The notes under the pieces are model-generated. The model saw nothing but the letters and a program-made list of their open reading frames with translations. It was not told the DNA's origin and did no database searches. Positions 4,558 to 40,593 of a DNA stretch of 64,000 nt are shown piece after piece (position 1 is the first letter of the stretch; every line of letters begins with the position of its first letter). Source of the DNA: Pseudomonadales bacterium (GTDB taxonomy: Bacteria; Pseudomonadota; Gammaproteobacteria; Pseudomonadales; UBA5862); assembly GCA_024234215.1 (NCBI GenBank), contig JACKOQ010000001.1, positions 335,753-399,752 on the forward strand, written 5' to 3'. Made by a program: the position numbers and the translations under genes.

Positions 4558-4671
4558 GCTCCAGCTTGCGCCTCGGACATTGTCCGGGTCGCAGAACAAT
4601 AACAGCGCAAAATGATTCGCGTGCACGCACGACCCTCTCGAACATCAATAACCAGATACGGAGTGGCTTCC

Positions 4672-6429
4672 ATGAAGACAACCCAACCGCCTCGCCTCGG
4701 GCGCACCCTGCTGGCCGCGACCATCGCCACGGCAGCCTTCGCCAGCCTGCCGCTGCAGGCGATCGAATATGAGTCGGGCGACACCAAGGTCAAGCTCGAC
4801 GCCACCTTCTCGGCCGGCGCCAGTTGGCGGGTCAGCGAGCGGGCCAACTACAACATCCGCTCAGCTGGTGAGACGCCGGTCTCCTACGGCAACTCCGGCA
4901 GCGGCAACGACTCCAACCTCAACTACGACAAGGGCGACATCTTCAGCAAGGTGGTCAAGGTGACGCCGGAGCTGGAGATCACCAACGGCAACTACGGTGG
5001 TTTCTTTCGCGCCAAGGCCTTCTATGACTTCAAGATGATGGATGGCGAGCTGCGCTACTATAAAGAGGGCATCAACAAGCATGGCCTCAATGACGTCGGC
5101 AGCAGCATCGATCTGCTCGACGCCTTCGTCTATGGCAACTTTGATCTGGGCGAACATCCGCTGACGGTGCGGGTGGGTCAGCAGGCGCTTGGCTGGGGTG
5201 AGGCGATCTTCGCCTCCGGCGGCATTGCCAGCATCAACCCGGTCGATGGCAACGCCGCCCGCCTGCCGGGTGCCGAGGTCAAGGAGATCATCCTGCCGAC
5301 CGGCATGATCTCGCTGAACTTCGGCTTCAGTGACAGCGTCTCGGCCGAAGGCTTCTACCGCCCCAACACCTTCTGGAAAGAGACCGTCCTGCCCTCCTGC
5401 GGCAGCTACTTTCTGCCGCGTGACATCACTGGCAGCTCTGGTCCCAACCTGAATGCCGCCAACAGCTGTACCCATTTGCGCATTGCCGGTCCGGCGGTGA
5501 CCACCAACGCCAATGGTGACATCGTCGGCTCCGACCTCTTTTCGACTGCCGTGTCTGCGGGCTACATTCCACGCGATCCTGACATCCATCCCGAGAAGGA
5601 TGAGTACGGCGTGGCGCTGCGTTTCGTCCTGCCGACCGAGTATGAGATGGCGCTGTTCTACACCATGACCAACGCCACGACCGGTAGCATCTATGGCCGG
5701 CCGGCCACTCCGTTCGGAACCGTGAACACCGGCTCCTACGGCTTCTACTTCCCGGAAGGGATCGAGAGCTATGGCATCAGCTTCAATGGCAACTCCTGGG
5801 GCAGCGCCTGGCAGGGTGAGCTGGTCTACCGGCCCAACAATCCGCTCAACTTCTCTGAGCAGGCGATGATATTGTCCAACCTGCGCTACAACGGCGGGTT
5901 GACCAATACCAAGCTGATGACCGGCCTGCTGCCCAATGGCGTGCCAACGCTCAACATGACCGAAGAGGCCGAAACCTGGCAGGCCACTACGGCGATGACC
6001 CGCGTGCTCAATCCGAGCGCACTGTGGGACAGCGGCAGCCTGCTGGTCGAGGTGATCGGCAACTATGCCGCGCTCAACAACGATGTAGTGCAGGTCATCA
6101 CCCCGATGACGATGCGGCACTACGATGTCAACGAGTTTGCCTGGGGCTACCGCGCCCGTCTGGGGCTCAACTACTTCAACATCAGCCCGCTGGGGCTCAC
6201 GCTGGGGCCATCGATCCTCTGGAGCCACGACGTCAATGGCGTCAGCCGCAGCGGGGTCGGCCAGGGCATGAAGGAGGGCAACCAGTCGCTGACGCTCGGT
6301 CTTGAGACCAAGTACCTGACCAAGCACACGGTCACGGTCAGCTACACCAACTTCTTCCACAGCAAGGCCTACGCCGACAACCTGTCGGACCGTGACTTTG
6401 TCTCGTTGAACTATATCTACTCACTCTGA
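4672..6429 (+). CDS. DUF1302-family outer-membrane (beta-barrel-like) protein
   Basis: ORF 4612..6429 trimmed to MKTTQPPRLGRTLLAATIATAAFASLPLQA (signal peptide; GGAG upstream). IEYESGDTKVKLDATFSAGASWRV matches the DUF1302 N-terminal signature as I recall it. C-terminal aromatic end ...LNYIYSL. Confidence 0.8.
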   Translation: MKTTQPPRLGRTLLAATIATAAFASLPLQAIEYESGDTKVKLDATFSAGASWRVSERANYNIRSAGETPVSYGNSGSGNDSNLNYDKGDIFSKVVKVTPELEITNGNYGGFFRAKAFYDFKMMDGELRYYKEGINKHGLNDVGSSIDLLDAFVYGNFDLGEHPLTVRVGQQALGWGEAIFASGGIASINPVDGNAARLPGAEVKEIILPTGMISLNFGFSDSVSAEGFYRPNTFWKETVLPSCGSYFLPRDITGSSGPNLNAANSCTHLRIAGPAVTTNANGDIVGSDLFSTAVSAGYIPRDPDIHPEKDEYGVALRFVLPTEYEMALFYTMTNATTGSIYGRPATPFGTVNTGSYGFYFPEGIESYGISFNGNSWGSAWQGELVYRPNNPLNFSEQAMILSNLRYNGGLTNTKLMTGLLPNGVPTLNMTEEAETWQATTAMTRVLNPSALWDSGSLLVEVIGNYAALNNDVVQVITPMTMRHYDVNEFAWGYRARLGLNYFNISPLGLTLGPSILWSHDVNGVSRSGVGQGMKEGNQSLTLGLETKYLTKHTVTVSYTNFFHSKAYADNLSDRDFVSLNYIYSL

Positions 6430-6468
6430 TCAGCAGATGATTTGAACCAACGTCCCGAGGTGACCCTG

Positions 6469-7842
6469 ATGAATTTGACTGAAAAAATGACGCTGGCGAG
6501 CGGTCTGCTGCTCACGCTGGCCACCCCGAGTCTACTGGCCAAGGTGCCGGCGGAACAGGCGGCGCAACTGGGTGGCGACAAGCTGACCTATATTGGCGCC
6601 GAGAAGGCAGCCAATGCCGACGGCTCGATTCCGGTGTGGGATGGCGGTTTTCCGCAAAGCCGGATTCCGGCCAACTGGAAGCCGGGTGACGTCTACACCA
6701 ACCCCTGGCCGGAAGACAAGCCGCTGTTCACCATCACTGCGCAGAATGTCGGTCAGTACAAGGAGAAGCTGACACCGGGCCAACTGGCGATGTTCGAGAA
6801 GTACCCCTCGACCTACAAGATTCCGGTCTATGTGAGCCGGCGCACGGCGACGGTGCCGGATCGGGTCAAGGAGTCGATCAAATACAACGCCGCCAACGCC
6901 ACGCTGGCCAACCAGGGCAAGGGGGTGGCCAACTACAAGGAGGTGACCCCGTTCCCGATCACCAGCGATGGACTGGAGGCGATCTGGAACCACATCTTCC
7001 GCTGGCGTGGCGGCATCGGCGTGATCCAGAACGAGGCCGGCTTTGCGCCGCAGGTCGACGGCTCGGCCACCAAGGTGTCGCTGACGGTCAACTTCTGGTT
7101 CAACCCGGAGGCGGGCAAGGCGGGCAGCCAGTATGAGAACATCATCTTCATGTACACCTCCGAGGTGACGGCGCCATCACGGCTGGCCGGCAGCCCGGTG
7201 CTGCTGCACGAGAGCATCGACCAGTCGCGCGAGCCACGGCTGGTGTGGCGCTACAACGCCGGCCAGCGGCGGGTGGCGCGGGCGCCCGATGTCGGCTTCG
7301 ACAACCCGAGTGACGCGGCCGATGGGCTGCTGGCATCCGATCAGGTGGACATGTACAACGGCTCGCCGGAGCGCTACGACTGGAAGCTGCTGGGCAAGAA
7401 GGAGATCTACATCCCCTACAACAACTACGAGATGAACCAGCCGGCGGTGAAGTACAAGGATCTGCTGACGCCGGGCCACCTCAACCAGCAGTGGAGCCGT
7501 TATGAGCCGCACCGGGTGTGGGTGGTGGAGGCGAAGCTGAAGGCCGATCAGCGCCACATCTACAGCCGGCGGGTGATGTTCCTGGACGAGGACACTTGGC
7601 AGGTGGCCGAGCATGACATGTATGACGGCAAGGACCAGCTGTGGCGGGTGCAGGAGGGTTACCACACCCACTTCTGGGATGCCAGCACCGGCTGGGTGCA
7701 GGTCTACACCACCAACGACCTGAATGCCAAGCGTTACTATGCGCGTGGTTTCGTGAACGAAGAGAAGCCCTACGAGTTCACCACCAGGTTCAGCTTCGAG
7801 GACTTCACACCGGCGGCACTGCGGCGCAAAGGGGTGCGCTGA
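6469..7842 (+). CDS. DUF1329-family (LolA-like fold) periplasmic/outer-membrane protein, copy 1
   Basis: ATG 6469 with GAGGTG 6 nt upstream. Signal peptide MNLTEKMTLASGLLLTLATPSLLA. Motif YDWKLLGKKEIYIPYNNY is typical of DUF1329. 457 aa. Confidence 0.85.
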   Translation: MNLTEKMTLASGLLLTLATPSLLAKVPAEQAAQLGGDKLTYIGAEKAANADGSIPVWDGGFPQSRIPANWKPGDVYTNPWPEDKPLFTITAQNVGQYKEKLTPGQLAMFEKYPSTYKIPVYVSRRTATVPDRVKESIKYNAANATLANQGKGVANYKEVTPFPITSDGLEAIWNHIFRWRGGIGVIQNEAGFAPQVDGSATKVSLTVNFWFNPEAGKAGSQYENIIFMYTSEVTAPSRLAGSPVLLHESIDQSREPRLVWRYNAGQRRVARAPDVGFDNPSDAADGLLASDQVDMYNGSPERYDWKLLGKKEIYIPYNNYEMNQPAVKYKDLLTPGHLNQQWSRYEPHRVWVVEAKLKADQRHIYSRRVMFLDEDTWQVAEHDMYDGKDQLWRVQEGYHTHFWDASTGWVQVYTTNDLNAKRYYARGFVNEEKPYEFTTRFSFEDFTPAALRRKGVR

Positions 7843-7874
7843 ATCCAGAGCGATTCGGTTGCCTGATCTGAACG

Positions 7875-7904
7875 GGCCGGTCTCGCAGGAGACCGGCCTT
7901 TTTT
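7875..7904 (+). terminator. rho-independent terminator
   Basis: GGCCGGTCTC-gcag-GAGACCGGCC followed by TTTTTT. Confidence 0.85.
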
Positions 7905-7950
7905 GTGTGCGTCCGAATCTGATCTGGATGCGATCGGCAGCGAAAAGCTG

Positions 7951-7977
7951 TTGTCAACCCGGTTGATGTGATATAAG
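7951..7977 (+). promoter_or_regulatory. putative sigma70 promoter with extended -10 (TTGTCA-15nt-TGaTATAAG) upstream of DUF1329 copy 2
   Basis: TTGTCA at 7951-7956 and TGATATAAG at 7969-7977. Shares GTTG-TGTGATATAA and the downstream AACAATAACA box (7997-8006) with the 4.5-kb promoter region (box at 4595-4604). Confidence 0.35.
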
Positions 7978-8300
7978 AGCCGCTCTTCGGTGCCATAACA
8001 ATAACAAGAATCGGTCATGAAGAGAGCGACGATGCACGGCACAGGCTGTGCCACTCCGACAGCAGCGCTGTTCGGATCGATTTCCCAAACAGCACACCAC
8101 TGGTCCAGCCGGACGGGTTCGGCTCGTTCGTGCTGGTGCGTCAGCCATTTTGCAGTCAAGGGGGGCACAGCAGCATCCGGACAGCGCAGAGATCACTTCA
8201 GTTTGGGCAGAGCGTGCGCATCAGCGCGGGCCGATTCGCGTTTGACAGGAGCCATCATCCCGATGGCTCAGGGTGAACATGACACATTGAGGTAGAGACG

Positions 8301-9674
8301 ATGCATTTCAGCACGAAAATGACGCTGGCGAGCGGCCTGCTGCTCACGCTGGCCACCCCGACGCTGCTGGCCAAGGTGCCGGCGGAGCAGGCGGCGCAAC
8401 TGGGCGGCGACAAGCTGACCTATATTGGCGCCGAGAAGGCGGCCAATGCCGATGGCTCGATTCCGGCCTGGGATGGCGGTTTTCCGCAGAGCCGGATACC
8501 GGCCAACTGGAAGCCGGGCGATGTCTACACCAACCCCTGGCCGGAAGACAAGCCGCTGTTCACGATCACCGCGCAGAACGTCGCTCAGTACAAGGAGAAG
8601 CTGACGCCGGGCCAGCTGGCGATGTTCGAGAAGTACCCTGCGACCTACAAGATTCCGGTCTATGTGAGCCGGCGCACGGCGACGGTGCCGGATCGGGTCA
8701 AGGAGTCGATCAAATACAACGCCGCCAACGCCACGCTGGCCAACCAGGGCAAGGGGGTGGCCAACTACAAGGAGGTGACCCCGTTCCCGATCACCAGCGA
8801 TGGACTGGAGGCGATCTGGAACCACATCTTCCGCTGGCGTGGCGGCATCGGCGTGATCCAGAACGAGGCCGGCTTTGCGCCGCAGGTCGACGGCTCGGCC
8901 ACCAAGGTGTCGCTGACGGTCAACTTCTGGTTCAACCCGGAGGCGGGCAAGGCGGGCAGCCAGTATGAGAACATCATCTTCATGTACACCTCCGAGGTGA
9001 CGGCGCCATCACGGCTGGCCGGCAGCCCGGTGCTGCTGCACGAGAGCATCGACCAGTCGCGCGAGCCACGGCTGGTGTGGCGCTACAACGCCGGCCAGCG
9101 GCGGGTGGCGCGGGCGCCCGATGTCGGCTTCGACAACCCGAGTGACGCGGCCGATGGGCTGCTGGCATCCGATCAGGTGGACATGTACAACGGCTCGCCG
9201 GAGCGCTACGACTGGAAGCTGCTGGGCAAGAAGGAGATCTACATCCCCTACAACAACTACGAGATGAACCAGCCGGCGGTGAAGTACAAGGATCTGCTGA
9301 CGCCGGGCCACCTCAACCAGCAGTGGAGCCGTTATGAGCCGCACCGGGTGTGGGTGGTGGAGGCGAAGCTGAAGGCCGATCAGCGCCACATCTACAGCCG
9401 GCGGGTGATGTTCCTGGACGAGGACACTTGGCAGGTGGCCGAGCATGACATGTATGACGGCAAGGACCAGCTGTGGCGGGTGCAGGAGGGTTACCACACC
9501 CACTTCTGGGATGCCAGCACCGGCTGGGTGCAGGTCTACACCACCAACGACCTGAATGCCAAGCGTTACTATGCGCGTGGTTTCGTCAACGAAGAGAAGC
9601 CCTACGAGTTCACCACCAAGTTCAATTTCGAGGATTTCACGCCGGCGGCGCTGCGTCGCAAGGGAGTACGCTGA
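8301..9674 (+). CDS. DUF1329-family protein, copy 2 (tandem paralogue)
   Basis: ATG 8301 with GAGGTAGAG upstream. 457 aa. The two proteins differ by only a handful of residues and are identical from TYKIPVYVSRR through PYEFTT. Confidence 0.85.
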   Translation: MHFSTKMTLASGLLLTLATPTLLAKVPAEQAAQLGGDKLTYIGAEKAANADGSIPAWDGGFPQSRIPANWKPGDVYTNPWPEDKPLFTITAQNVAQYKEKLTPGQLAMFEKYPATYKIPVYVSRRTATVPDRVKESIKYNAANATLANQGKGVANYKEVTPFPITSDGLEAIWNHIFRWRGGIGVIQNEAGFAPQVDGSATKVSLTVNFWFNPEAGKAGSQYENIIFMYTSEVTAPSRLAGSPVLLHESIDQSREPRLVWRYNAGQRRVARAPDVGFDNPSDAADGLLASDQVDMYNGSPERYDWKLLGKKEIYIPYNNYEMNQPAVKYKDLLTPGHLNQQWSRYEPHRVWVVEAKLKADQRHIYSRRVMFLDEDTWQVAEHDMYDGKDQLWRVQEGYHTHFWDASTGWVQVYTTNDLNAKRYYARGFVNEEKPYEFTTKFNFEDFTPAALRRKGVR

Positions 9675-9760: not shown

Positions 9761-11221
9761 TCAGGATGAGCAACTGATCTGCAACCGCTGACCCCATTCG
9801 GGTGGCGAACCGGCCCAGGCTTCATCGGCCGGATGTTCGTCATGCGGTTGGTGCAGCAGCCGGGCCAGCCGATCGATCAGGCTGAAGTCGCCCTGTTCCG
9901 CCTGGCGGATCGCCTGTTCGGCCAGGTAGTTGCGCAGCGTGTATTTGGGGTTGACCTGTCGCATGGCCGCGGCGCGTTCGGCGGGCTGGGTCTGCTCCTG
10001 TTGCAGCCGTCGTGTGTAGAGGCGGTGCCAGGCATCGAAGGCATCGGGCTGCGCGAAGAGGGCGCGGGCCTGCCGCCGACGCTGCTCGTTCTCCTCGCTG
10101 CTCAATGCCCGGAAACAGCGGCTGTAGTCGACATGCTGGGCATGCAGCAGGTTGAGCAGATCGAGCATGAGTTGGCGGTCATCCGCCTGTTCGGTCATCA
10201 ACCCGAGCTTGGTCCGCATTCTGCGCTCGAAGTGGTGCAGGTAGCGCCACTGGTACTGGTCGAGCGCCCGTTCGATCGCCTCGGCCTCGATCCATTCACT
10301 GAAGCAGAGCGCCAGTGCGCGCAGGTTCCACCAGCCGATGGCCGGTTGCTGATCGAAGGCGTAGCGGCCATGGTGGTCGGAGTGGTTGCAGATGTGGTCG
10401 AAGCGGTAGTGGTCCTGAAAGCCGTAGGGTCCGTAGTCGAGCGTTTCGCCGATGATCGACATGTTGTCGCTGTTCATCACGCCATGGGCAAAGCCGACCG
10501 CCTGCCACTCGGCAATCAGCCGCGCGGTGCGATCGATCACGTCGCACAGCAGTGTCAGCGGGGGCCAGGCGCTGTCGAGCGCGGCAGGAAAGTGGCGCTC
10601 GAGGGTGTAGTCGAGCAGTTGCTGCAGCGAGGCCTGGTCGCCGCTGTGGTGGAAGTACTCGAAATGGCCAAAGCGGATGTGGCTGCCGGCCAGTCGCAAC
10701 AGCGTGGCGCCCGGTTCGATCCGCTCGCGCCGCACCGGCAGGTCACTGCCGATGACACAGAGTGCGCGCGTGGTGGGGATGCCCAGACCGGTCATTGCGA
10801 TGCCGGCCAGGTATTCACGGATGCAGGAGCGCAACACCGCGCGACCATCGCCCATGCGCGAAAAGGGCGTCAGGCCGGCGCCCTTCAGATGCAGGTCGAT
10901 GCGCTCGCCATTGCGATTGCAGACCTCGCCGAGCAGCAGTCCGCGCCCATCGCCCAACCGCGGGCTGTAGCCGCCGAACTGATGGCCGGCATAGACCATC
11001 GCCAGCGGATCGGCGCCGGGCAGTGTACGCTGACCGCTGAAAATCTCCGCCCAATCGGTGGCCGCCAGCGTGGCAGGGTCGAGATCGATCAGCGCGGCGG
11101 CCGAGGCATCGACCGCGACCAGATAGGGATTGGGCAGCGGATCGGGCGGTTGCCGGTGGTGGAACTGTCCCGGCAGGCGGGCAAAGCTGTTGTCGAAATT
11201 GAGGTGCGGGGCGGGTTGCAT
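9761..11221 (-). CDS. selO: protein adenylyltransferase SelO (YdiU family)
   Basis: 486 aa. VYAGHQFGGYSPRLGDGRGLLLGEV and HGVMNSDNMSIIGETLDYGPYGF are typical SelO/YdiU pseudokinase motifs. Confidence 0.9.
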   Translation of the reverse strand: MQPAPHLNFDNSFARLPGQFHHRQPPDPLPNPYLVAVDASAAALIDLDPATLAATDWAEIFSGQRTLPGADPLAMVYAGHQFGGYSPRLGDGRGLLLGEVCNRNGERIDLHLKGAGLTPFSRMGDGRAVLRSCIREYLAGIAMTGLGIPTTRALCVIGSDLPVRRERIEPGATLLRLAGSHIRFGHFEYFHHSGDQASLQQLLDYTLERHFPAALDSAWPPLTLLCDVIDRTARLIAEWQAVGFAHGVMNSDNMSIIGETLDYGPYGFQDHYRFDHICNHSDHHGRYAFDQQPAIGWWNLRALALCFSEWIEAEAIERALDQYQWRYLHHFERRMRTKLGLMTEQADDRQLMLDLLNLLHAQHVDYSRCFRALSSEENEQRRRQARALFAQPDAFDAWHRLYTRRLQQEQTQPAERAAAMRQVNPKYTLRNYLAEQAIRQAEQGDFSLIDRLARLLHQPHDEHPADEAWAGSPPEWGQRLQISCSS

Positions 11222-31279: not shown

Positions 31280-31525
31280 GGGGTGGGTTTTTCTCCACTG
31301 CTCGAACTCCCATGAACGCAGAAGCGAGCAGGCGGCTCGGTGCATCTTGGGCAATGGGCGTATAGGTTGCGTTCCAGCCATCCTCCCGCATCACATCTTG
31401 CTGTTTTCCTGTCGAAGAAGCCAAGGACAATTCCACGGAGTTGTTTTTTGTTTTGTGCCATTTTTCTGTGTTTTCCCTGATATTGATTCGAATCGCAATT
31501 TTCTTTAGAAGGTGATCATCAAGCA

Positions 31526-33223
31526 ATGGATCTGTCATTTTTTGAAGGCCGAGACAAGAAAATCAAGGCGCTGGAGGCGAGCGACGATGCTGCCGGACTG
31601 GAATCGCCAAAAGGAGACTTGAAGAGCTTTCTGTTTTTTATTCTGGCCTATGCCGTTCTGCTACTCATATTTTGCAATTTCGTGTCGAGCGTTCCGATTG
31701 GAAATTACTGGTGGGATTATCTGGCGCTCAAAGGGATTGAAGTCCAGATGTTCGCAGGCAGTGCGAACATCCGCGAACTGTGGCTGCCCTTCATGCTTCC
31801 GATTTGGCTTCTCAAGGCTTCCAATCTGATTTCGGGATATGGCGTTGATTATTTTGTCGCGCATGTCTTGATCGGTGCGGCCACATTTGCGCTGACATAC
31901 CAGCCGGTTTTTTCTCGATTGCCGAAGCGTTTTGCAGTTTGCATCTACTTGCTGCTGCTTGTCTTCAGTGTCGTTCCGGTGGCTCTGGATTTTACTTTTT
32001 TTTCTTTCGCGGATGCCAATGCGGTTGCCTATCACGGTTTCTACAACCGTTACATGGATGTCATCTACTGCTTTCTTGTCCTGAGTTTTTGGGTCAAGAA
32101 AGAAAAAGAGTCGTTTTCTGTTGCAGTGTTCTGGAGTTTTGCCCTCGTCGTTGCCTTGCTGACCAAGCTTTCGTACTTTGTCGTTTTTCTGGCGCTGTTA
32201 TGGGCGAATGTGTTGAGTGAGCGTAGCCGTCCAGCGCTGGTCAGTTGCATTGTGGGTGCAGGCGCCGCAGCTGGACTCTATCTGCTCTGGCCGAACTATT
32301 TTGAAACGGTCTGGAATATTGTGCTGGTCAGGGGGCTTGCACCGCTTTTGAAGTGGGAGGTGCTTGCGGCGCTCGCAGGGGTTGCTGGAGTTCTGTTGTC
32401 GGTCTGCTTTTATCTGATGAAAAAAGAGATCAGGATTTTTCTGTTTGCATCATTGCCGCTCCTCTCCAGCATTGCTCTGAGCAGTGGGAATGTGGGGGAT
32501 TTGCAGCCGCTCAGGCTGGCATTTGCATTGGCGCTCCCGGTTTTTGTCTATCGGAGTGAGTTGCGCAGCAGCAAGTTGATCCTTGAGCGCGAGCGCAGTG
32601 CGAAAAAATCGATAAGATGGGGCATGAGCCTGTACTTTTCTGCTCTATTGGTGATTTCGTTGATGATGGTGAGGCCGGTTTTGGTGGTCATGAAAACTGC
32701 CATGATAACCGGCACAGCAATTTTTGCGCATGAAGCCGGATTGAGGTCTGAATTTGTTGAGTTCAGGAACATCAAGGGTTTTTTCTCGCATGCTTACTAT
32801 CTCCCTCAGTCTCTGCGCCATCTTTTGGACATGAGAGAATTTTCCGTATCAGAATATGGCAGCAATGGATGGCATAAGGCTGGCTTTTTTATTTTGTACG
32901 CGCGTGAAATGGATAAAACGCTCTCATATGTCAGTCAGTTCAGAAATGATAAAATATCGTGGTTCTCTTTTCCGGGTCTGGTCCCCCAGATTTATGGGGT
33001 GGGTCGAATTCCAGAAGGTGCATGGCCGTGGTATCTGTATGGTCATGAAATCAGTCGATCATATCATCCGGATTTTTTGGCAATCAATGCCGAAAGCAGG
33101 GTCGCCGTGGTGGATGAATGTTACTGGAGCGGGAAAGAGTTGCTGGAGAATTTTGGAGATGAGATCAGGATTAAATCCCGGATCATTTTCAAGAGTGCAT
33201 GCTTCACTGTTTATGGGGATTGA
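31526..33223 (+). CDS. polytopic membrane protein with C-terminal soluble domain; candidate GT-C-type glycosyltransferase (function unproven)
   Basis: 565 aa with 10 or more hydrophobic segments followed by a ~150-aa hydrophilic tail. Visibly lower G+C than the flanks. Convergent with the DPA-like operon. No motif that I can name. Confidence 0.6.
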   Translation: MDLSFFEGRDKKIKALEASDDAAGLESPKGDLKSFLFFILAYAVLLLIFCNFVSSVPIGNYWWDYLALKGIEVQMFAGSANIRELWLPFMLPIWLLKASNLISGYGVDYFVAHVLIGAATFALTYQPVFSRLPKRFAVCIYLLLLVFSVVPVALDFTFFSFADANAVAYHGFYNRYMDVIYCFLVLSFWVKKEKESFSVAVFWSFALVVALLTKLSYFVVFLALLWANVLSERSRPALVSCIVGAGAAAGLYLLWPNYFETVWNIVLVRGLAPLLKWEVLAALAGVAGVLLSVCFYLMKKEIRIFLFASLPLLSSIALSSGNVGDLQPLRLAFALALPVFVYRSELRSSKLILERERSAKKSIRWGMSLYFSALLVISLMMVRPVLVVMKTAMITGTAIFAHEAGLRSEFVEFRNIKGFFSHAYYLPQSLRHLLDMREFSVSEYGSNGWHKAGFFILYAREMDKTLSYVSQFRNDKISWFSFPGLVPQIYGVGRIPEGAWPWYLYGHEISRSYHPDFLAINAESRVAVVDECYWSGKELLENFGDEIRIKSRIIFKSACFTVYGD

Positions 33224-33636
33224 GTGTCAAGTCCCGCCTGATCATAAGGTCGCCCGTGGTGCGCAACGTGGCTTCAATGATTTTTGACAGGGGCGTTGAA
33301 TGTTTGAGCTGAAAGCGGCTGCGAAAGGAAAAGCATCTATCGCTCTGATTGTTTTGGTGGCTTTGTTTCTGAGGCTTGCCATCATGTTCCAGGGTTTGAC
33401 TTGTCTGGATCGAATGTTCTTGCTTGATGTGATTTGACGGGTAATTTAGGTGTTGAGGTGCCCCGGATCGAGATCTTGTCCGAACAGGTTGAGTCCAGAT
33501 CCCAGCGTGATTTTCTGCTGGAGAGAGATGCTGCTGGAGGAGGCAGCGTATTCGAATCCTGTTCAGCCTGGCGATGAAACGCAGAGGGTGCCTGTAGAAA
33601 AGCAGTCCGGTGTTGGTGAGTCATGAAGAAGGGCTC

Positions 33637-34050
33637 TCATGTGCCCTGTGTGCGGAAAACGTAGCGCTTGTCGAGATGGTATTTGGCCAAATAGCCAATG
33701 GCCAGACCAATGATGCCGCCCAGATAACGCATCTCTTTGGTTGCGAAGAGGTGATGGAAGGTGAACTCGAATCCCCAGAAAATCGCGGTGGTGGCCAAGC
33801 CCATGGCGGTGTAGAGCGCAAAAGTCTGGGAGTCATGGATTGCGTTGTGCGCGCGAAAGCGAAAGATGTAGCGTTTGTCGAGAAGATACTTTACGAAAAG
33901 TCCAGCTCCTGTGCCGACTGCAACGGAAATGAGCATGCCGAATGCTCCGTTGTAAAGGCGGATGGAGAGGTCTTGCGTGCCGATGTTCGTTGCGGTTGCC
34001 ATGCAGGCAAAAATGCCATACTTGAGCGCCAGTCTTGCGGAAGAGAGCAT
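33637..34050 (-). CDS. GtrA-family membrane protein
   Basis: 137 aa with 4 TM segments. KYGIFACMATATNIGTQDL...LFVKYLLDKRYIFR...YLAKYHLDKRYVFR (repeated GtrA-type K-Y-x-L-D/N-K-x-[WY]-[VI]-F motif). Confidence 0.8.
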   Translation of the reverse strand: MLSSARLALKYGIFACMATATNIGTQDLSIRLYNGAFGMLISVAVGTGAGLFVKYLLDKRYIFRFRAHNAIHDSQTFALYTAMGLATTAIFWGFEFTFHHLFATKEMRYLGGIIGLAIGYLAKYHLDKRYVFRTQGT

Positions 34051-34119
34051 TGAACGATTTTCGCTGATGGGGTGTCTTTTATGATGGGGCGGAGAAATAC
34101 AGAAAGCCGAATCCTCTTT

Positions 34120-34857
34120 TCACAGAGCAAGGCGTTTGAAGAGCCACTCCGGCAGATGAATGATGGCCAGCATGATGAAGCGCCAGAACCAGGGGGTGTA
34201 GAGAGTGTTTCTGCGCTTTTCGATCGCGCGCACGATGTCACTGCCGACCTGCTCCGGCGTCGCCAGCAGCAGTTGCGGCAGCGCCAGTCCTTGGGTCATC
34301 GGAGTGTCGACGAAACCGGGTTTGATGGTCAGCAGATGCACGCCACTGCGGTGCAGGCGGCCACGCAGCCCGCTGCAGAAGTCGGTGACGGCACCCTTGG
34401 CGGCGCCATACAGATAGTTGGAGGGGCGGCCACGGTCGCCCGCCACCGAGGAGATGACGGCGATGCAGCCAGTGCGCTGTGCTTCCATCTGATTGGCGAG
34501 TTCGGTGAGCAGCGCAATCACGCTCAGGCCATTGTTGGTGAACTCCTGCAGGGCCAGCCTGGCGTCCCGTTCGCAGGCCTGCTGATCCGGCAGCGTGCCG
34601 TGGGCAATGAGCGCGATGTCGATGCGCCCCAGCGCGGTCCGACAGGCCTCCAGCATGGCGGCATGTTGATCGAGCTGGGTCAGATCGAGCAGATGGGTGT
34701 GCACCGTGGCGCCGCGTGCGCTCAGGTCATCGGCCACCTGCTGCAATTTTGCGGCGGTGCGTCCCACCAGAAAGAGCGTTGCGCCTTGCCGTGCCCAGTG
34801 CCGGGCAGCGGCGGTGGCAATGGCCGAGGTCGCGCCGATGATCAGGATGTTTTGCAT
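34120..34857 (-). CDS. short-chain dehydrogenase/reductase, DprE2-like (polyprenyl-P-2-keto-pentose reductase candidate)
   Basis: IIGATSAIATAAA (TGxxxGxG-type NAD site), catalytic YGAAK. 245 aa. Operon context with a DprE1-like FAD enzyme. Confidence 0.75.
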   Translation of the reverse strand: MQNILIIGATSAIATAAARHWARQGATLFLVGRTAAKLQQVADDLSARGATVHTHLLDLTQLDQHAAMLEACRTALGRIDIALIAHGTLPDQQACERDARLALQEFTNNGLSVIALLTELANQMEAQRTGCIAVISSVAGDRGRPSNYLYGAAKGAVTDFCSGLRGRLHRSGVHLLTIKPGFVDTPMTQGLALPQLLLATPEQVGSDIVRAIEKRRNTLYTPWFWRFIMLAIIHLPEWLFKRLAL

Positions 34858-34897
34858 GAGGGGCTGCCGAGGTGGGTTTGATTTGCTCTGCCAAAAG

Positions 34898-36877
34898 TCA
34901 CGGTAAGGTTGACGGGACAGGCGGTATTTCCAGTGCCGTCAGCGTCAGACGGTAGTCACTGCGCCAGGAGAACGAATTGCTCCCTTTTCCTTGCTTTTCT
35001 GGATCTTTTTCGCAGAACGTCAGCGACTCGCCGCAGCGGGTGACGGCGCGGGAGGAGAGGATGCGGATGCGCTGGACCACTCTGGTGTCGTGCAGCGATG
35101 GCGGTTGACCATTCGCCAGTTGGGCGAACTCGGCGGTGGATTCGACGAGCGGTGACAGCACGAAGCCGGTCAGCGCCATGCTGGGGATGAAGCGATAGAC
35201 CCGCTTCTCGCCATGGCCGAGGTCGACCGAGAGGTAGAGCTGATCGGGCTTGAACAGCAGCATCGACAGTCGCCCGAGCAGCGTCGGCGCCAGCTCGATC
35301 TCGGCAAAGAGCATCTGCGCGGCAGAGGGGAGCGACACCCATTCGCCAAGGCGATGGCTCTGCTGCGTCAGCACGGTTTTTTGCGTCGTGGCCGGCGTGG
35401 TTCGTCTTTGCAGGTGGAGGTATTGGCGGTCGCTGCCCGTGATCTGGTAGTGCGACAGCAGCGTCGGCCAGCTCAGACCATCGTCCAGTGAGGGGAAGCG
35501 GCCATCGATGCTCTCGATGCGAAAGAAGATGTTGTCCGGCGCCGCTGCGCCGCGCAGATGCGCTTCATTCATCCGGGCGAGCAGCGGGGTGTAGGCCGAA
35601 TAGCTCTGCAGCACCGGACGTGGTGCCCAGTGGTTGCCCGAAGCGATCAGGTCAGTGAGGTCGAAGGGGTAGATATCGCTGCTGCCGGGGAGTCGGGGCA
35701 GGGGTGACTGGGTAGCGAGCTGTCTCATCCGCTCGGTGAATGCCTGTCGGATGTCGAGGGGATTGTTGTCCGTCACACCACGCAGCGCTGCCAGCGGGGT
35801 CTGTTCGATCGAGAGGCCGATGTATCGCAGATGCATGAACAGGCACATCAGCAAGGCGGTCACCACGATCGACCGCGGCAGCTTTGCGCTGTGGGTGGCC
35901 TGAATCGCCAGAATGGCCAGCACCGTTCCGGTGCTGATCGCCCCCGCATGGACGCGGTCATGCCGCACGAAACCGGCCTTGAAGGCGATGAACAGGAACA
36001 GCCCGACGGCCAGGGTGATGGCCAGCCGCTTCGGCAGCGCAGGGCCGGCTGAACGCAGGGTTGCAAGGATGATCCCGGCCGCCAGTCCGAGGTAGACCAC
36101 CACCTGCCAGAGCAGTCCGCGGTTGGACATCGCCTCGGCAAAACCGGAGATGATCGGCGACAGGGTGCGGAAGTAGTCGGGCAGCGCCGCCAGCGGTTGA
36201 CCGGCCAGCCCCCACAGCAGCAGCAGCGTCAGCAGCGGCAGCAGGATGAACAGCGCCGCACGCAGCCGCTCACCCTTCAGGCCATGCAGCAGCGCACCGA
36301 CCAGGCTGGCCATCACTGCCAGCGGCCAGAATGAGCCCTTGATGATCGGCAGCGCGCCGAGCAGGGCGATGGCGAGCAGATGGCCGGTCTCTTGGCCGAC
36401 AAAGCGCAGCCGGTCATCACTGCCGTGGGAGGCACTCTCCATGCAGGTCACCAGGGTCAGCAGCAGCGGGTAGGCGAAGAACAGCGCATCGCGCGAGTCG
36501 ACCAGCAGCAGAAAGCCGGCAAGGGTCCACAGCCAGCCGTTGTGCCGTCGGCGCAGGCAGCTCAGCAGCAGGGTGCCCTGTGCCAGCCCGAACAGCACGC
36601 CGAGCAGCAGGGCGGCCGGATAGGTTGCGGGGTGGTAGTGCTGGGTGTAGAGCGCGGCGTAGGGGCCAAAGGTGAAGACGATGTCGCGCCCGAACACCAG
36701 TCCCTGCGCCACCGCCTGGTTCATCGCCAGGCGCCAGGCGTCGTCCAGTTCAGTACCGGGCAACAGCGGCGCGAAGGGTGCAAAGGCCAGGAGGCTGGCG
36801 AGCAGCAGCAGAGCACCCAGCACGACAGGCCGGGTGGCCAGAAACTGTTTCCATCCAGAGCGCGACAGTCGACTCAC
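34898..36877 (-). CDS. large polytopic membrane protein with ~230-aa C-terminal soluble domain; candidate polyprenyl-P-sugar-dependent (GT-C-like) glycosyltransferase
   Basis: ORF 34898..37246 trimmed to GTG 36877, which overlaps the upstream stop as GTGA. About 12 hydrophobic segments. First periplasmic loop ELDDAWRLAMNQAVAQGLVFGRDIVFTFGPYAALY. Function is inferred from context only. Confidence 0.6.
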   Translation of the reverse strand: MSRLSRSGWKQFLATRPVVLGALLLLASLLAFAPFAPLLPGTELDDAWRLAMNQAVAQGLVFGRDIVFTFGPYAALYTQHYHPATYPAALLLGVLFGLAQGTLLLSCLRRRHNGWLWTLAGFLLLVDSRDALFFAYPLLLTLVTCMESASHGSDDRLRFVGQETGHLLAIALLGALPIIKGSFWPLAVMASLVGALLHGLKGERLRAALFILLPLLTLLLLWGLAGQPLAALPDYFRTLSPIISGFAEAMSNRGLLWQVVVYLGLAAGIILATLRSAGPALPKRLAITLAVGLFLFIAFKAGFVRHDRVHAGAISTGTVLAILAIQATHSAKLPRSIVVTALLMCLFMHLRYIGLSIEQTPLAALRGVTDNNPLDIRQAFTERMRQLATQSPLPRLPGSSDIYPFDLTDLIASGNHWAPRPVLQSYSAYTPLLARMNEAHLRGAAAPDNIFFRIESIDGRFPSLDDGLSWPTLLSHYQITGSDRQYLHLQRRTTPATTQKTVLTQQSHRLGEWVSLPSAAQMLFAEIELAPTLLGRLSMLLFKPDQLYLSVDLGHGEKRVYRFIPSMALTGFVLSPLVESTAEFAQLANGQPPSLHDTRVVQRIRILSSRAVTRCGESLTFCEKDPEKQGKGSNSFSWRSDYRLTLTALEIPPVPSTLP

Positions 36878-38193
36878 TGGTCGATGACCCGTTGCCAGAA
36901 CCGTGACAGGATCCGCGGATCGCGCAGCGCTTCGAGCTGCGTCCAGGCCGGGTAGGCAGCGCGGAAGTCGCTGCCGCTCATGTGGGCATCCTTGGCCGGG
37001 TAGAGCCGCCCGTGCGCTTCGCGGACGATGGCATCGAGCCGGGCAAACAGCCGCTGGGTGCGCTGACCCTGCTGCGGGAAGTCGAGCGCCAGGGTCACGC
37101 CTGGCATCGGGAACGAGAGCAGCCCGGGCGATGGCGCATCGCCGAAGCGCTTCAGCACGGCGAGAAAGGAGCCGTTCTGTGCGCTGGCGATGCTGTCGAG
37201 CAGCGCGCGGGTCGCCGCGGCCGCGTTGCCGGGCGGCAGCACGCACTGATACTGCTGAAAACCATGCGGACCGTAGATGCGGTTCCAGTTCAGGATGCGG
37301 TCGAGCGGGTAGAAGAAGGGCTCATGGCTGTTTCGGCTCTGGTGACGGTCCGCCCGGTGGAGCCGGTAGTAGGCGCTGTTGAACAGCCGCAGCGACAGGC
37401 GGTTGACCAGCGACAGCGGCGGCGTGACCGGGACCCTCAGCCGGGAGGGGCGGTGGCACGCCAGCGGGCCCGCTTCGGCATGGTCGGCCACGCTGTAGAC
37501 GCCACGTCCGGCGGTCTTGCCCCGTGACAGGCAGTCGATCCAGGAGACGGCGAACTCGTGCCGCTGATCCAGTTCGTTCGAGAGGGCAAAGAACTCATCG
37601 AGCGCGCCGAAGCGCACCGTGGTGACATCGAGCAGGCTGGAGCGGATCGGCAGCAGTTGCAGTTCGACCCAGTCGATCAGACCGGTCAGCCCCAGACCAC
37701 CGATGGTGGCGGCATAGAGTGCGCTGTTTTCGCTGGAGGAGCAGACCAGCTCGGCCCCATCGCTGCGCATCAGCCCGAAGCGGGGTACATGGCAGCCGAA
37801 GGTGCCGCGCCGATGGTGGTTCTTGCCATGGACGTCATTGGCCAGTGCGCCACCGAGCGTGACGAACTTGGTGCCCGGCGTGACCGGCACGAACCAGCCG
37901 CGCGGAATGGCGAGCTCCAGCAGCTCACCGAGTGTCATGCCCGCCTCGGCACGAATCAGCCCGCTCTGCCAATCCGCCGCAATGAAGCGGTCGAGCGGCC
38001 GCAGCGACAGCAACTGGTCGCTGGCGGCCAGGCAGCTGTCACCATAGGAGCGGCCATTGCCATAGGGGAGCAGGCTGCCATGTTTGGCGGCCACGGCCGC
38101 CAGGGTGGGCCGCACCGTTTCGCGCCAGGCACAGTGGTGCAGGGTCTGTGGATGGTGCGGGTAGCGTCCCCAGGAGTACCGCCCGGCACTCAT
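36874..38193 (-). CDS. FAD-binding (PCMH-type) oxidoreductase, DprE1-like
   Basis: 439 aa. N-terminal FAD_binding_4-like GNGRSYGDS...VTLGGALANDVHGKNHH. C-terminus LSFPMPGVTLALDFP...GRLYPAKD resembles M. tuberculosis DprE1 as I recall it. ATGA overlap with the upstream gene. Confidence 0.8.
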   Translation of the reverse strand: MSAGRYSWGRYPHHPQTLHHCAWRETVRPTLAAVAAKHGSLLPYGNGRSYGDSCLAASDQLLSLRPLDRFIAADWQSGLIRAEAGMTLGELLELAIPRGWFVPVTPGTKFVTLGGALANDVHGKNHHRRGTFGCHVPRFGLMRSDGAELVCSSSENSALYAATIGGLGLTGLIDWVELQLLPIRSSLLDVTTVRFGALDEFFALSNELDQRHEFAVSWIDCLSRGKTAGRGVYSVADHAEAGPLACHRPSRLRVPVTPPLSLVNRLSLRLFNSAYYRLHRADRHQSRNSHEPFFYPLDRILNWNRIYGPHGFQQYQCVLPPGNAAAATRALLDSIASAQNGSFLAVLKRFGDAPSPGLLSFPMPGVTLALDFPQQGQRTQRLFARLDAIVREAHGRLYPAKDAHMSGSDFRAAYPAWTQLEALRDPRILSRFWQRVIDQ

Positions 38194-39674
38194 GCAGCGA
38201 TCCAGAAGACCGCGGCGAAGAGGGCACCGACCAGCAGGCTGGTGCGATCCTTGATTGCAAACAGCACCGGATCCTCATGCATCTGGCCGCGGTGGGCGAG
38301 CATCCAGGTGCGGGTGACCCAGTAGAGCAGCAGCGGGCAGGCCAGCCAGATCAGCTGGGGATGCTGGTAGAGGGCTGCGGTCGTCTGATCCTGGGTGTAG
38401 AGCGCCAGCACCATCACCGAGAGATAGCCGGAGGCAGCGCCCAGTGCCGAGACCATCTCCAGATCGGCCGGGTAGTAGCCGCGCCCCGGGGTCAGTTCGC
38501 TCTTGCCCTTGAGGCGGGAGTCGCGCAGTTCGGTGTAGCGCTTGACCAGCGCCAGGCTGAGGAACAGGAACATCGAGAAGGCCAGCATCCAGAAGGTCAG
38601 CGTGACCCCGAAGGCGAAGGTGCCGGCGATGACCCGCAGCGTGTAGAGCGCGGCCAGCACGATGACATCGACCCCCATGTAGCGCTTCAGCAGCAGTGAG
38701 TAGGAGAGGGTCAGGCCGTAGTAGCAGAGCAGCGCCAGCACGAACTGCTGCGGCAGCAGCCAGGCCGCGCCGGCGAACGCGGTCAGCGTCAGCAGCGGAA
38801 ACAGCAGCAGCACCGACTTGATCGGGACCGCGCCGCTGGCCAGCGGACGATGGCGCTTGCGGTGGTGCTGGCGGTCATCCTGCAGATCGAGCAGGTCGTT
38901 GAGCAGATAGACGCTGGAAGCACAGAGACCAAACAGCACAAAGGCCAGCAGGCCATTCAGCAACATGGCGGCATCGCCGAGCTTGTGGGCGGCCAGCAGC
39001 GGGACGAACAGCAGTGCGTTCTTCGCCCACTGGTGCAGGCGCAACTGTTGGCTCCAGTCACGCCAGGGGTTGCCGGCTGTGCGCAGCACCTGCTCGACGT
39101 TGCCCTGCCGTCTGGCCGCGGCTTCGACACCGCGCTCCGGGTTGGCCAGGTGGGCGCGCTGGGCCGCCTCCCACACCTTCAGGTCATCGCGCGAGTTGCC
39201 GAGGTAGTCGAACCCCTGCTCGCCATGGTGTTGCACCAGCAGGTCACGCTTGTGGTGGGCCGACAGATTGACCTCGCCCTCGGTGGCCAGCACCTGCTCG
39301 AACAGGCCGAGGTGCTCCGCGATCGCCTCGGCATAGTGGCGGTGGCTGGCGGTCGCCAGAATCAGGCGGCGGCCAGCGGCGTGCTCCTGTTGCAGAAATT
39401 CGAGCACCTGCGGGTCGTAGGGCAGTGCGGCCACCTCGATCGGCGCCATGGCCGCCAGCCGCTGCTTGAGTGCGGCCTTGCCCTGCAGCAGCCAGAGCAG
39501 TGGCATGAAGGCTTGCAGCGGATGGTGGCGGGCGAATGCGCAGGCAGACTCGACCAGCAGGTCGGAGCGCAGCAGCGTGCCGTCGAGGTCGACCGCCAGC
39601 GGCGGCAGCGCCGGGGCGCTGCTGTCAGCGGCTGGATGGTGGTCTGTCTGGGCTTGCTGCTTGGCTGATTTCAT
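38190..39674 (-). CDS. HAD-phosphatase :: UbiA-family polyprenyl-phosphate phosphoribosyltransferase fusion (Rv3806c-like C-terminal domain)
   Basis: 494 aa. N-terminal HAD motif I AVDLDGTLL and later GNSRDD. C-terminal UbiA motifs NDLLDLQDDRQH and KRHRPLASG, with about 8 TM segments. GGAAGGAA RBS upstream. Confidence 0.8.
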   Translation of the reverse strand: MKSAKQQAQTDHHPAADSSAPALPPLAVDLDGTLLRSDLLVESACAFARHHPLQAFMPLLWLLQGKAALKQRLAAMAPIEVAALPYDPQVLEFLQQEHAAGRRLILATASHRHYAEAIAEHLGLFEQVLATEGEVNLSAHHKRDLLVQHHGEQGFDYLGNSRDDLKVWEAAQRAHLANPERGVEAAARRQGNVEQVLRTAGNPWRDWSQQLRLHQWAKNALLFVPLLAAHKLGDAAMLLNGLLAFVLFGLCASSVYLLNDLLDLQDDRQHHRKRHRPLASGAVPIKSVLLLFPLLTLTAFAGAAWLLPQQFVLALLCYYGLTLSYSLLLKRYMGVDVIVLAALYTLRVIAGTFAFGVTLTFWMLAFSMFLFLSLALVKRYTELRDSRLKGKSELTPGRGYYPADLEMVSALGAASGYLSVMVLALYTQDQTTAALYQHPQLIWLACPLLLYWVTRTWMLAHRGQMHEDPVLFAIKDRTSLLVGALFAAVFWIAA

Positions 39675-39855
39675 GGTGCAGAGTTCCTTCCTGTCCGATT
39701 TTCACTCTTCAACGTGCTCATGTCGTCACTGTCAGTTCAACGATTTGACCAAGCAGCGGGTGACGGGAAGCAGCGAAGCTTAACAATTCCGTGTAACGAT
39801 TTCATGCCAACAATCAGAAAAAGCATGATTTTCCGCCGGCGGAGGCGGTGGGTGA

Positions 39856-40593
39856 TCATCGCTGTGCGTCACCCGCTGGAGTGATCGACTCAAGCCTGGC
39901 CAGCGCAGCGGGCAGTTCACCCAGATGGTGAATGGTCGCGCTGGGGGGTGTGCCGCCGGGCCAGTCGCTGGCGGTGTGGTTGACCCAGATGGTGTGGATG
40001 CCGAGCCGCTGCGCCCCGTCGATGTCATGCTGGGGGTGGTCACCCACATGCACCATCTGCGCCGGACTGCATCGGATGGCGTCGAGCGCGGCCCGGAACA
40101 GCGCCGGGTCGGGCTTGCCGACCCCCAGCATCTCGGCACTGAAGCCGAAGTCGAAGTAGCGGTCGAGCCCCAGGCGGCGGATGTCGGCGTTGCCATTGGT
40201 GAGGGCGCCGAGGCGGTAACGCCGCGCCAGCAGTTCGAGCATCTCCAGCGCATCGGCGTGGTAACGCACCTGGTGGCGCGCCTGCAGGAACTGCTCGAAG
40301 GCGGCTTCGGTAATCTGCTGTGCGCGCTCGGCGTCGAGGCCCAGATCGCGCAGCGTCGTTGCGATGACCCGCCGCCGCAGCTCGCTGACCCGATGGATCA
40401 GCGCCGGCTCCGCCGCCAGCAGCAGCGCGCGCTGCTGGCGCAGGATGCCCGAGCGCAATGTGTCGCCGAGCGCGGGCAGTTGCTGTTGCAGAGCGCGCTG
40501 CATGGCCGCTTCGGCCTCGATCAGCACCGGCGTGCTCTCCCACAGGGTGTCGTCGAGGTCGAAGGTGACCAGCTTCAGCCGGGGCGGCGTCAT
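39856..40593 (-). CDS. yigB: HAD-IA family hydrolase (YigB-like)
   Basis: ORF 39856..40932 trimmed to MTPPRLKLVTFDLDDTLW (DxDxT). ...VGKPDPALF...HVGDHPQHDIDGA. ATGA overlap with the xerC stop. Synteny dapF-yigA-xerC-yigB as in E. coli. Confidence 0.8.
   Translation of the reverse strand: MTPPRLKLVTFDLDDTLWESTPVLIEAEAAMQRALQQQLPALGDTLRSGILRQQRALLLAAEPALIHRVSELRRRVIATTLRDLGLDAERAQQITEAAFEQFLQARHQVRYHADALEMLELLARRYRLGALTNGNADIRRLGLDRYFDFGFSAEMLGVGKPDPALFRAALDAIRCSPAQMVHVGDHPQHDIDGAQRLGIHTIWVNHTASDWPGGTPPSATIHHLGELPAALARLESITPAGDAQR

Follow-up and report, generated by a model that had tools for sequence, protein, structure and literature searches.

The operon and its products

The locus described here lies in a 64-kb window (the whole stretch of DNA that was analysed) from the metagenome-assembled genome (MAG) of an uncultured Pseudomonadales bacterium, and it consists of five co-directional open reading frames (ORFs) on the minus strand (39674..33637), named g1 to g5 in transcription order (Table 1). 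Together, the five products probably constitute a self-contained periplasmic system for arabinofuranosylation, with an acceptor located in the cell envelope. The genes are densely packed. The stop codon of g1 overlaps the start codon of g2 (TCAT on the plus strand at 38190-38193, ATGA on the coding strand), the stop of g2 overlaps the start of g3 in the same way (TCAC at 36874-36877, GTGA on the coding strand), and these 4-nt overlaps suggest that g1, g2 and g3 are translationally coupled; gaps of 40 and 69 nt separate g3 from g4 and g4 from g5. An earlier note on this DNA, made from the sequence alone, had described five minus-strand genes with these coordinates and overlaps and with gaps of about 40 and 70 nt, and all of this was confirmed in the sequence, as were the motifs that it listed for the translations, i.e. 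DLDGTL, NDLLDLQDD, KRHRPLASG, LSFPMPGVTLALDFP, GRLYPAKD, GATSAIA and YGAAK. The GTG start assigned to g3 is supported by relatives of 659–662 aa that share the start position and by relatives of ~790 aa whose extra length is mainly C-terminal; a few longer relatives start 9–31 residues earlier. A 782-aa ORF that would add 123 N-terminal residues was rejected as the real g3, since longer homologues gain their length at the C terminus instead. In the public annotation of the MAG, g1 is labelled 'UbiA family prenyltransferase' and g2 'FAD-binding oxidoreductase', with nothing further.

Table 1. Features of the probable arabinofuranosylation locus, with positions in the 64-kb window
Feature	Position	Strand	Size	Description	Basis
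g1	38190..39674	-	494 aa	HAD phosphatase fused to UbiA; predicted bifunctional polyprenyl-phosphate phosphoribosyltransferase	Pfam, NCBIfam, PDB
g2	36874..38193	-	439 aa	Predicted DprE1-like FAD-dependent polyprenyl-phospho-ribofuranose 2'-oxidase	Pfam, NCBIfam, PDB
g3	34898..36877	-	659 aa, GTG start	Polytopic membrane protein; candidate GT-C-type arabinofuranosyltransferase	AlphaFold2, Foldseek, gene linkage
g4	34120..34857	-	245 aa	DprE2-like short-chain dehydrogenase/reductase, presumed 2'-keto reductase	Pfam, NCBIfam, PDB
g5	33637..34050	-	137 aa	GtrA-family small membrane protein, putative flippase/hub for lipid-linked sugar	Pfam, NCBIfam
orf565	31526..33223	+	565 aa	Low-GC polytopic membrane protein with soluble C-terminal domain, convergent with g5	ORF, composition
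Swapped segment (orf565 + g5)	31290..34119	.			blastn breakpoints vs L004 and L085; drop in GC at third codon positions
Presumed operon promoter region upstream of g1	39675..39855	-	181 nt	AT-richer, GC 0.51	Composition

Predicted donor enzymes

In the g1 product, a HAD domain (Pfam match at residues 28-136) is joined to a UbiA domain (226-471), the two domains spanning about residues 22-195 and about 200-494, and the whole protein scores 669 bits against the NCBIfam model PRK08238 (cut-off 351). The UbiA domain reaches 160, 145 and 112 bits with the NCBIfam models for decaprenyl-phosphate phosphoribosyltransferase (DPPRS), against about 30 bits with the ubiA and cyoE (heme O synthase) models, all three DPPRS scores lying under their cut-offs, the best against an equivalog cut-off of 207. 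A phmmer search of the PDB with this domain retrieved as sole relatives the entries 8j8j and 8j8k of Rv3806c from Mycobacterium tuberculosis (Mtb; E 2.2e-27), with the NDxxDxxxD motif aligned, which bears out the earlier note's assignment of the domain outside the quinone and heme types. That note had also likened the gene set to one that includes the PAP2-type phosphatase Rv3807c; on this point it must be corrected, as the HAD domain is an analogue and not a homologue of Rv3807c, fused to UbiA as in Citrobacter youngae ORF15 (PMC11127046). The operon holds no PAP2 or DUF212 gene, and the fused HAD domain takes over the role of 5-phosphate phosphatase by analogy.

The second and fourth genes were recognized by the earlier note as DprE1-like and DprE2-like, and both assignments are upheld by their best solved relatives. 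The g2 product, a Pfam FAD_binding_4 protein, scores 334 bits with the NCBIfam DprE1 model (cut-off 500) and 43 bits with the next model; among PDB sequences, Mtb DprE1 structures match residues 8-419 at E 3.6e-64, followed by the next family at 6e-6. It retains the residues found at the H132, K134, Q334/Q336 and K418 positions of Mtb DprE1. At the position of Cys387, the benzothiazinone-binding cysteine, it has Ala (VTLALDFP vs WNICVDFP), from which insensitivity of g2 to covalent DprE1 inhibitors is predicted. The g4 product is a Pfam adh_short protein that scores 345 bits with NCBIfam PRK07102 (cut-off 267) and 173 bits with the DprE2 model (cut-off 250), the latter ranking second of 210 models for short-chain dehydrogenases/reductases (SDRs). 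Its top PDB match is DprE2 (21gq_C), aligned over the full length at E 2.5e-27, and the next SDR follows at 1.5e-15. The homologies of g1, g2 and g4 are specific and full-length; as the UbiA domain of g1, g2 and g4 all score under the NCBIfam equivalog cut-offs, they are homologues outside the actinobacterial orthologue groups, for which identical chemistry is inferred. The g5 product belongs to the GtrA family, as the earlier note had it, with a match to the Pfam family GtrA_DPMS_TM and 184 bits against the NCBIfam model gtrA_1.

The candidate transferase g3

For the g3 product, no match was found in Pfam, NCBIfam or the PDB sequences, and a profile of 34 family sequences also returned nothing meaningful from the PDB sequences. 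When Pfam was scanned with these 34 sequences and with 10 longer relatives that look like fusions, no informative domain emerged, with neither TPR nor PMT_2 in the 34. The family comprises at least 841 clusters at 90% identity and, at 50% identity, 9,642 representatives at E <= 1e-3 or 5,213 at E <= 1e-30, and its members are spread over many phyla, in the genomes of at least 579 species representatives. An AlphaFold2 model of g3 built from the 34-sequence input (predicted local distance difference test score, pLDDT, 90; predicted template modelling score, pTM, 0.90) has about 12-13 transmembrane helices in residues 6-390, followed by a 265-aa alpha/beta, beta-rich C-terminal domain that would face the periplasm. 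When this model was compared with the PDB by Foldseek, as the earlier note had proposed, the top matches were GT-C glycosyltransferases, namely AglB (probability 1.0, E 2e-3) and the arabinosyltransferase AftA (probability 0.92), with AftB at rank 37; they formed the sole coherent group, with no WaaL, Wzy or transporter ranked among them, and the similarity itself is weak, at a template modelling score of only about 0.3.

The N-terminal 17 residues of g3 contain four Lys/Arg and no Asp/Glu, and the N terminus is therefore probably cytoplasmic. The first periplasmic loop is acidic (ELDDAW), and D45 is conserved in at least 90% of the 34 diverse sequences; D130, K300 and H310 are further conserved residues. 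The most conserved motifs of the family sit in the C-terminal domain. On plasmid pGui1 of Leptospira interrogans and three other Leptospira plasmids, tblastn matches were limited to this domain (residues about 398-578 of g3), the pGui1 match lying in a 355-aa hypothetical protein (L093 5674-6741); because these matches cover the C-terminal domain only, it may also occur on its own.

Linkage of g3 relatives to donor genes

Gene linkage was surveyed across 80 genome loci from many phyla, each holding a g3 relative, by scoring the 10-kb neighbourhood. Genes resembling UbiA, DprE1 and DprE2 all lay within 10 kb of the g3 relative in 30 of the 80 loci; a HAD-domain match adjoined the UbiA-domain match in 28 of these, and 23 showed the co-directional order UbiA-DprE1-DprE2-g3. 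Linkage at this frequency, with a fixed order in 23 loci, argues that the grouping is not due to chance. The order in these 23 genomes mirrors dprE1-dprE2-aftA in Mtb, with g3 in the position of aftA. How widely the window's own order occurs, a question raised by the earlier note, was answered by the same survey: placement of g3 between the DprE1- and DprE2-like genes recurred only in Halopseudomonas salina.

Most of the g3-linked cassettes add an NAD-dependent epimerase, a DAO-type FAD oxidoreductase and a GtrA protein of another subfamily, and some also carry a methyltransferase or further polytopic proteins. Examples with the two extra redox enzymes are found in Pseudomonas citronellolis (L040 6411-16400), on a plasmid of Burkholderia stagnalis (L088) and on a plasmid of Rhizobium tumorigenes (L092), where the cassette abuts pse genes. 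In a Porticoccaceae locus, g3 is accompanied by GtrA, a family 2 glycosyltransferase (GT2) and a polytopic protein that scores at the Pfam threshold for PMT and would be a GT-C enzyme of this type. The HAD-UbiA fusion was found on 86 plasmids or chromids, and a Rhizobium leguminosarum plasmid carries UbiA-GtrA-FAD-SDR followed by two genes for hypothetical membrane proteins. In view of these 86 replicons and of the size of the g3 family, the donor-plus-transferase gene set is common in Gram-negative bacteria rather than exotic or rare, as the earlier note had portrayed it. The same note had left both the modified glycoconjugate and the transferases undefined. For the transferase, the GT-C-like model together with the conserved linkage to donor genes makes g3 the obvious candidate.

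A natural cassette swap at the site

The locus is variable. The GC content at third codon positions is host-like in g1-g4 (0.79-0.87) and drops to 0.66 in g5 and 0.56 in orf565, a gene between the GST (glutathione S-transferase) gene and g5 that was overlooked in the earlier note and whose overall GC content is 0.48. The g5 gene is compositionally foreign. Its product is 72-79% identical to GtrA proteins from Comamonadaceae and Nitrosomonas clusters that combine UbiA with GtrA-DprE1-DprE2; in MAG loci from these groups (L094/L095 7087-12114; L096 4784-9700), a DUF212(PAP2-like)-UbiA pair stands next to GtrA and a DprE1-like gene, and the Comamonadaceae loci L094/L095 continue with a DprE2-like SDR and an uncharacterised membrane protein of ~520 aa. 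The GtrA proteins of these loci reach 76% identity to g5.

In a related genome of ~90% nucleotide identity (L004), the island is found at this very site, with the GST gene on one side and the yigB-like HAD gene on the other, and differs in that a second g3 paralogue (779 aa) lies between g3 and the SDR gene. Downstream of the SDR gene, the place of g5 and orf565 is taken in L004 by an NAD-epimerase, a DAO-type FAD oxidoreductase, a GtrA unrelated to g5 and a methyltransferase (L004 7960-14520 compared with window 31290-34897). A 95% identical genome (L085) shows the window's layout. That a close relative holds a different cassette at the same site establishes that the locus is variable; no remnants of the alternative L004 cassette were found in the window. 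The two GtrA subfamilies divide in the loci examined, one being seen in cassettes that have the pair of extra redox enzymes and the second in plain sets of the decaprenyl-phospho-arabinose (DPA) type, and we infer that the swap in the window changed the donor to plain polyprenyl-phospho-arabinofuranose (polyprenyl-P-Araf).

For the orf565 protein, only 7 relatives were found among 5.8 billion proteins, none of them with a Pfam match; the protein itself matches no family, and its distant relatives lie in loci for the core of lipopolysaccharide (LPS), with waaA, an msbA-like gene, genes for GT4, GT2 and GT25 enzymes, and ugd. The motif NYWWDY..KG.E.Q just after its first transmembrane helix is invariant. 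Its AlphaFold model is poor (pLDDT 57), and the top Foldseek matches, again GT-C enzymes and non-significant (E 0.24), are for this reason only a hint. By hhalign, no relation was found of g3 to orf565, to a 519-aa protein of R. leguminosarum or to a 517-aa protein of Comamonadaceae, nor of orf565 to three cassette-linked membrane proteins, the latter and two from the Porticoccaceae locus L091. Its membership of the system is uncertain; orf565 may be a second, acceptor-specific transferase, and if so it would offer a thin hint at LPS as the acceptor.

Relation to known systems

The operon is most likely a variant of the three-component pentofuranose systems and of the DPA pathway of mycobacteria and Pseudomonas paraeruginosa. 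In Azorhizobium caulinodans, noeC, which encodes a DprE1-like protein, and the genes downstream of it serve the D-arabinosylation of Nod factor in a Gram-negative species; the context there is one of nod genes and the acceptor a lipochitooligosaccharide, whereas nod genes are missing here. The view of the earlier note that such sets are described in Gram-negatives only for Nod factor and pilin is outdated. Kelly et al. (2024) reported three-component pentofuranose systems that are widespread in Gram-negative bacteria and include DprE1/DprE2 homologues where the sugar is Araf (PMC11127046). In the ORF15/ORF14/ORF12 system of C. youngae O1/O2, ORF15 was shown biochemically to combine an N-terminal phosphoribose phosphatase with a C-terminal polyprenyl phosphoribose synthase (PMC11127046), and g1 shares its HAD-UbiA architecture. 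The systems share a logic in which phosphoribosyl pyrophosphate is converted to a lipid-linked pentofuranose, which undergoes epimerisation in the cytoplasm and, after export, serves as substrate for a polytopic GT-C enzyme with a C-terminal periplasmic domain. They differ in that the exporter here would be of the GtrA family rather than the ORF14 (ArnE/F-like) type, the operon encoding no other small membrane protein, and in that the operon lies among housekeeping genes and not in an O-antigen locus. By its published description, the GT136 enzyme ORF12 has a membrane part of about 500 aa with D31/E34/Y35, H106 and R349, whereas that of g3 measures about 390 aa, with D45, D130, K300 and H310; in motifs and proportions the two look different.

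With the mycobacterial DPA pathway the operon has in common clear homologues of Rv3806c (the g1 UbiA domain), DprE1 (Rv3790; g2) and DprE2 (Rv3791; g4), as well as a GtrA-family protein (cf. Rv3789). The g3 family follows DprE1-DprE2 in most related cassettes, as does aftA (Rv3792) in Mtb (bioRxiv 2020.04.19.049825), and AftA is itself among the top fold matches of g3. In contrast to mycobacteria, the phosphatase is of the HAD and not the PAP2 type, the position of DprE1 Cys387 is occupied by Ala, the lipid carrier is presumably undecaprenyl rather than decaprenyl, and there are no Emb or AftB-D homologues, and one or two transferases would take the place of a battery. P. paraeruginosa (PA7/Pa5196) offers a Gram-negative example, in which the DPPRS-GtrA-DprE1-DprE2 set lies on a genomic island without linkage to the acceptor gene, and the layout of its genes PSPA7_6245-6249 matches the Comamonadaceae and Nitrosomonas clusters that hold g5-type GtrAs. 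The PAP2-like phosphatase and the DPPRS are separate proteins in PA7, whereas the two functions are joined in the HAD-UbiA fusion here. The PA7 transferase TfpW, the product of a gene adjacent to pilA, is described as ArnT-like and has a TPR domain at its C terminus, whereas g3 has none of these features and the window contains no pilin gene.

Proposed pathway and acceptor

In the pathway that we propose, the HAD domain of g1 would remove the 5-phosphate, g2 would oxidise C2', and g4 would reduce the product in the cytoplasm, presumably completing the ribo-to-arabino epimerisation, to give polyprenyl-P-D-arabinofuranose. The GtrA protein g5 would help the lipid-linked sugar to move or to be handed over, and g3, with its GT-C-like architecture and conserved periplasmic domain, would transfer Araf to the acceptor in the envelope. 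Prototype biochemistry has been reported for a polyprenyl phosphoribose synthase with HAD domain and for a GT-C enzyme (PMC11127046), and DprE1, DprE2 and GtrA have been studied in the Araf glycosylation of pilin (bioRxiv 2020.04.19.049825). As acceptor, LPS or some other polysaccharide of the envelope seems to us a better guess than a pilin. The hints are that relatives of orf565 lie in LPS-core loci, that the R. tumorigenes cassette adjoins pse genes, and that close relatives differ by swapped cassettes, as at surface-antigen loci.

Several observations weigh against this scheme. The scores of g2, g4 and the UbiA domain fall below the equivalog cut-offs for DprE1, DprE2 and DPPRS. In the linkage survey, 44 of the 80 g3 loci, many of them in Legionella and 14 on contigs of <15 kb, lack all three donor genes within 10 kb, and a further 6 show only one or two of them. 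The transferase role of the g3 family is putative, and whether GtrA acts as a flippase is a matter of dispute also for the P. paraeruginosa and Mtb proteins (bioRxiv 2020.04.19.049825). Finally, the 64-kb window contains no O-antigen, core or pilin gene.

Alternative explanations

It is conceivable, if rather unlikely, that g3 acts on the acceptor as a polymerase, ligase, scaffold or hydrolase, and that Araf is transferred by orf565 or by an unlinked GT-C enzyme. The likeness of the g3 structure to GT-C is weak, its most conserved part is a C-terminal domain that may stand alone in Leptospira plasmid proteins, and many relatives have no donor genes nearby; yet GT-C enzymes are its only coherent fold matches, to the exclusion of WaaL, Wzy and transporters, and both the conserved Asp in the first periplasmic loop and, in 23 genomes, a place behind DprE2 like that of aftA fit a transferase. 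The invariant acidic motif of orf565 and its arrival together with g5 would suit a transferase as well, but orf565 is missing from almost all other cassettes and its relatives are unlinked to donor genes. We also think it unlikely that the operon merely supplies the donor for O-arabinosylation of a type IV pilin by a TfpW enzyme encoded beside pilA elsewhere, with g3 as dispensable as PSPA7_6250/6251. There is a precedent in PA7, whose D-Araf cluster (PSPA7_6245-6251) lies apart from pilA-tfpW and includes two hypothetical genes that are dispensable for pilin glycosylation (PMC12369383; bioRxiv 2020.04.19.049825), and the GtrA subfamily of g5 occurs in clusters of PA7-like layout. The same precedent makes the absence of a nearby pilin, on which the earlier note had relied, uninformative. 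What speaks against a role in pilin glycosylation is that g3 is tightly and widely linked to donor genes, also where the phylum or locus shows no neighbouring pilin, and that it differs from TfpW, a 646-aa, ArnT-like protein with 11 transmembrane helices and a C-terminal TPR domain: the C-terminal domain of g3 is beta-rich, and neither TPR nor PMT_2 was matched. A pilin-type N-terminal motif was also not found in the 64-kb window.

The sugar itself might be another, the DprE1/DprE2-like pair yielding a 2-keto sugar or a different epimer and the transferase moving a pentofuranose other than Araf. The sub-threshold equivalog scores of g2 and g4 leave room for such a product; the two additional redox enzymes of most related cassettes suggest that the sugar is modified further there, and in the Citrobacter system the GT-C enzyme is not restricted to a single pentofuranose (PMC11127046). 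We nevertheless regard it as improbable for this locus, because the aligned DprE1 positions, including the equivalent of K418, are retained, because similarly distant homologues in P. paraeruginosa make D-Araf (bioRxiv 2020.04.19.049825), and because the window has no extra redox enzymes and its GtrA is of the subfamily seen in plain UbiA-GtrA-DprE1-DprE2 sets. As for a function of these genes in quinone, heme or secondary-metabolite prenylation, apart from glycans altogether, it is suggested by the public labels of g1 ('UbiA family prenyltransferase' or '4-hydroxybenzoate polyprenyltransferase') and is effectively refuted by the DPPRS/Rv3806c, DprE1 and DprE2 matches, to which the fusion with a HAD phosphatase and the linkage with DprE1, DprE2 and GtrA homologues may be added. 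Periplasmic arabinofuranosylation with g3 as the transferase remains the reading that we favour.

Neighbouring genes

The flanks are of housekeeping character, as the earlier note described them and as gene annotation confirms. On one side lie ruvAB, tolQRAB-pal-cpoB, queE/queC, a GldG-like ABC transporter and the GST gene, and on the other the yigB-like HAD gene, xerC, DUF484, dapF, lysA, lhr, hemB, hflXKC and purA. By analogy with a 245-aa gene call in L004, the yigB-like HAD gene has a putative start at 40593, with a 4-nt overlap with the xerC stop (window 40590-40593), and translational coupling would then be expected of xerC and the HAD gene, which immediately precede the island. In the intergenic regions, a consensus scan found no sigma-70 promoter site, no Rfam element was detected, and the count of terminator-like structures was not above that of shuffled sequence. 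Elsewhere in the window, and unrelated to the operon, one DUF1302 gene and, after it, a pair of DUF1329 paralogues lie on the plus strand (4612-9674), with a beta-ketoacyl-synthase-like ORF upstream (2580-4493) and a SelO adenylyltransferase gene just downstream on the minus strand (9761-11221).

Significance

D-arabinofuranose glycans are usually seen as a mycobacterial hallmark, and their synthesis as a target for drugs (DprE1, ethambutol). Gram-negative examples of the pathway have been described before; what is new is a very large, unannotated and probably GT-C-type family, that of g3, tied to the Araf donor pathway. This family and the natural cassette swap at the site are the main points to emerge, and for the window itself the gain is an improved annotation and not a new principle. 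Gram-negatives commonly carry a complete donor-plus-transferase cassette, which has been hidden under such labels as 'UbiA prenyltransferase', 'FAD-binding oxidoreductase', 'SDR' and 'hypothetical protein'. Glycobiologists are thereby offered a candidate transferase family, culturable carriers of related cassettes, such as P. citronellolis LMG 18378, Halopseudomonas salina, Paraburkholderia phytofirmans and Legionella gratiana, in which the extra epimerase and FAD oxidoreductase missing from the window are also encoded, and a close pair of strains (~90% nucleotide identity) with differing cassettes. With LPS or another polymer of the cell surface as acceptor, recognition by phages and antibodies would be affected, possibly with cross-reactivity to anti-lipoarabinomannan reagents.

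It is enticing, if still speculative, to consider that g3 founds an unrecognized GT-C family of polyprenyl-P-pentofuranose transferases, with Legionella, Paraburkholderia and Pseudomonas among its carriers, and that it marks a widespread, cryptic decoration of Gram-negative envelopes with Araf or related pentofuranoses in which the sugar is changed by cassette swaps between close strains, such as that between the window and L004. Should this be so, the strongly conserved periplasmic domain of g3 would point to a conserved, so far unseen acceptor.

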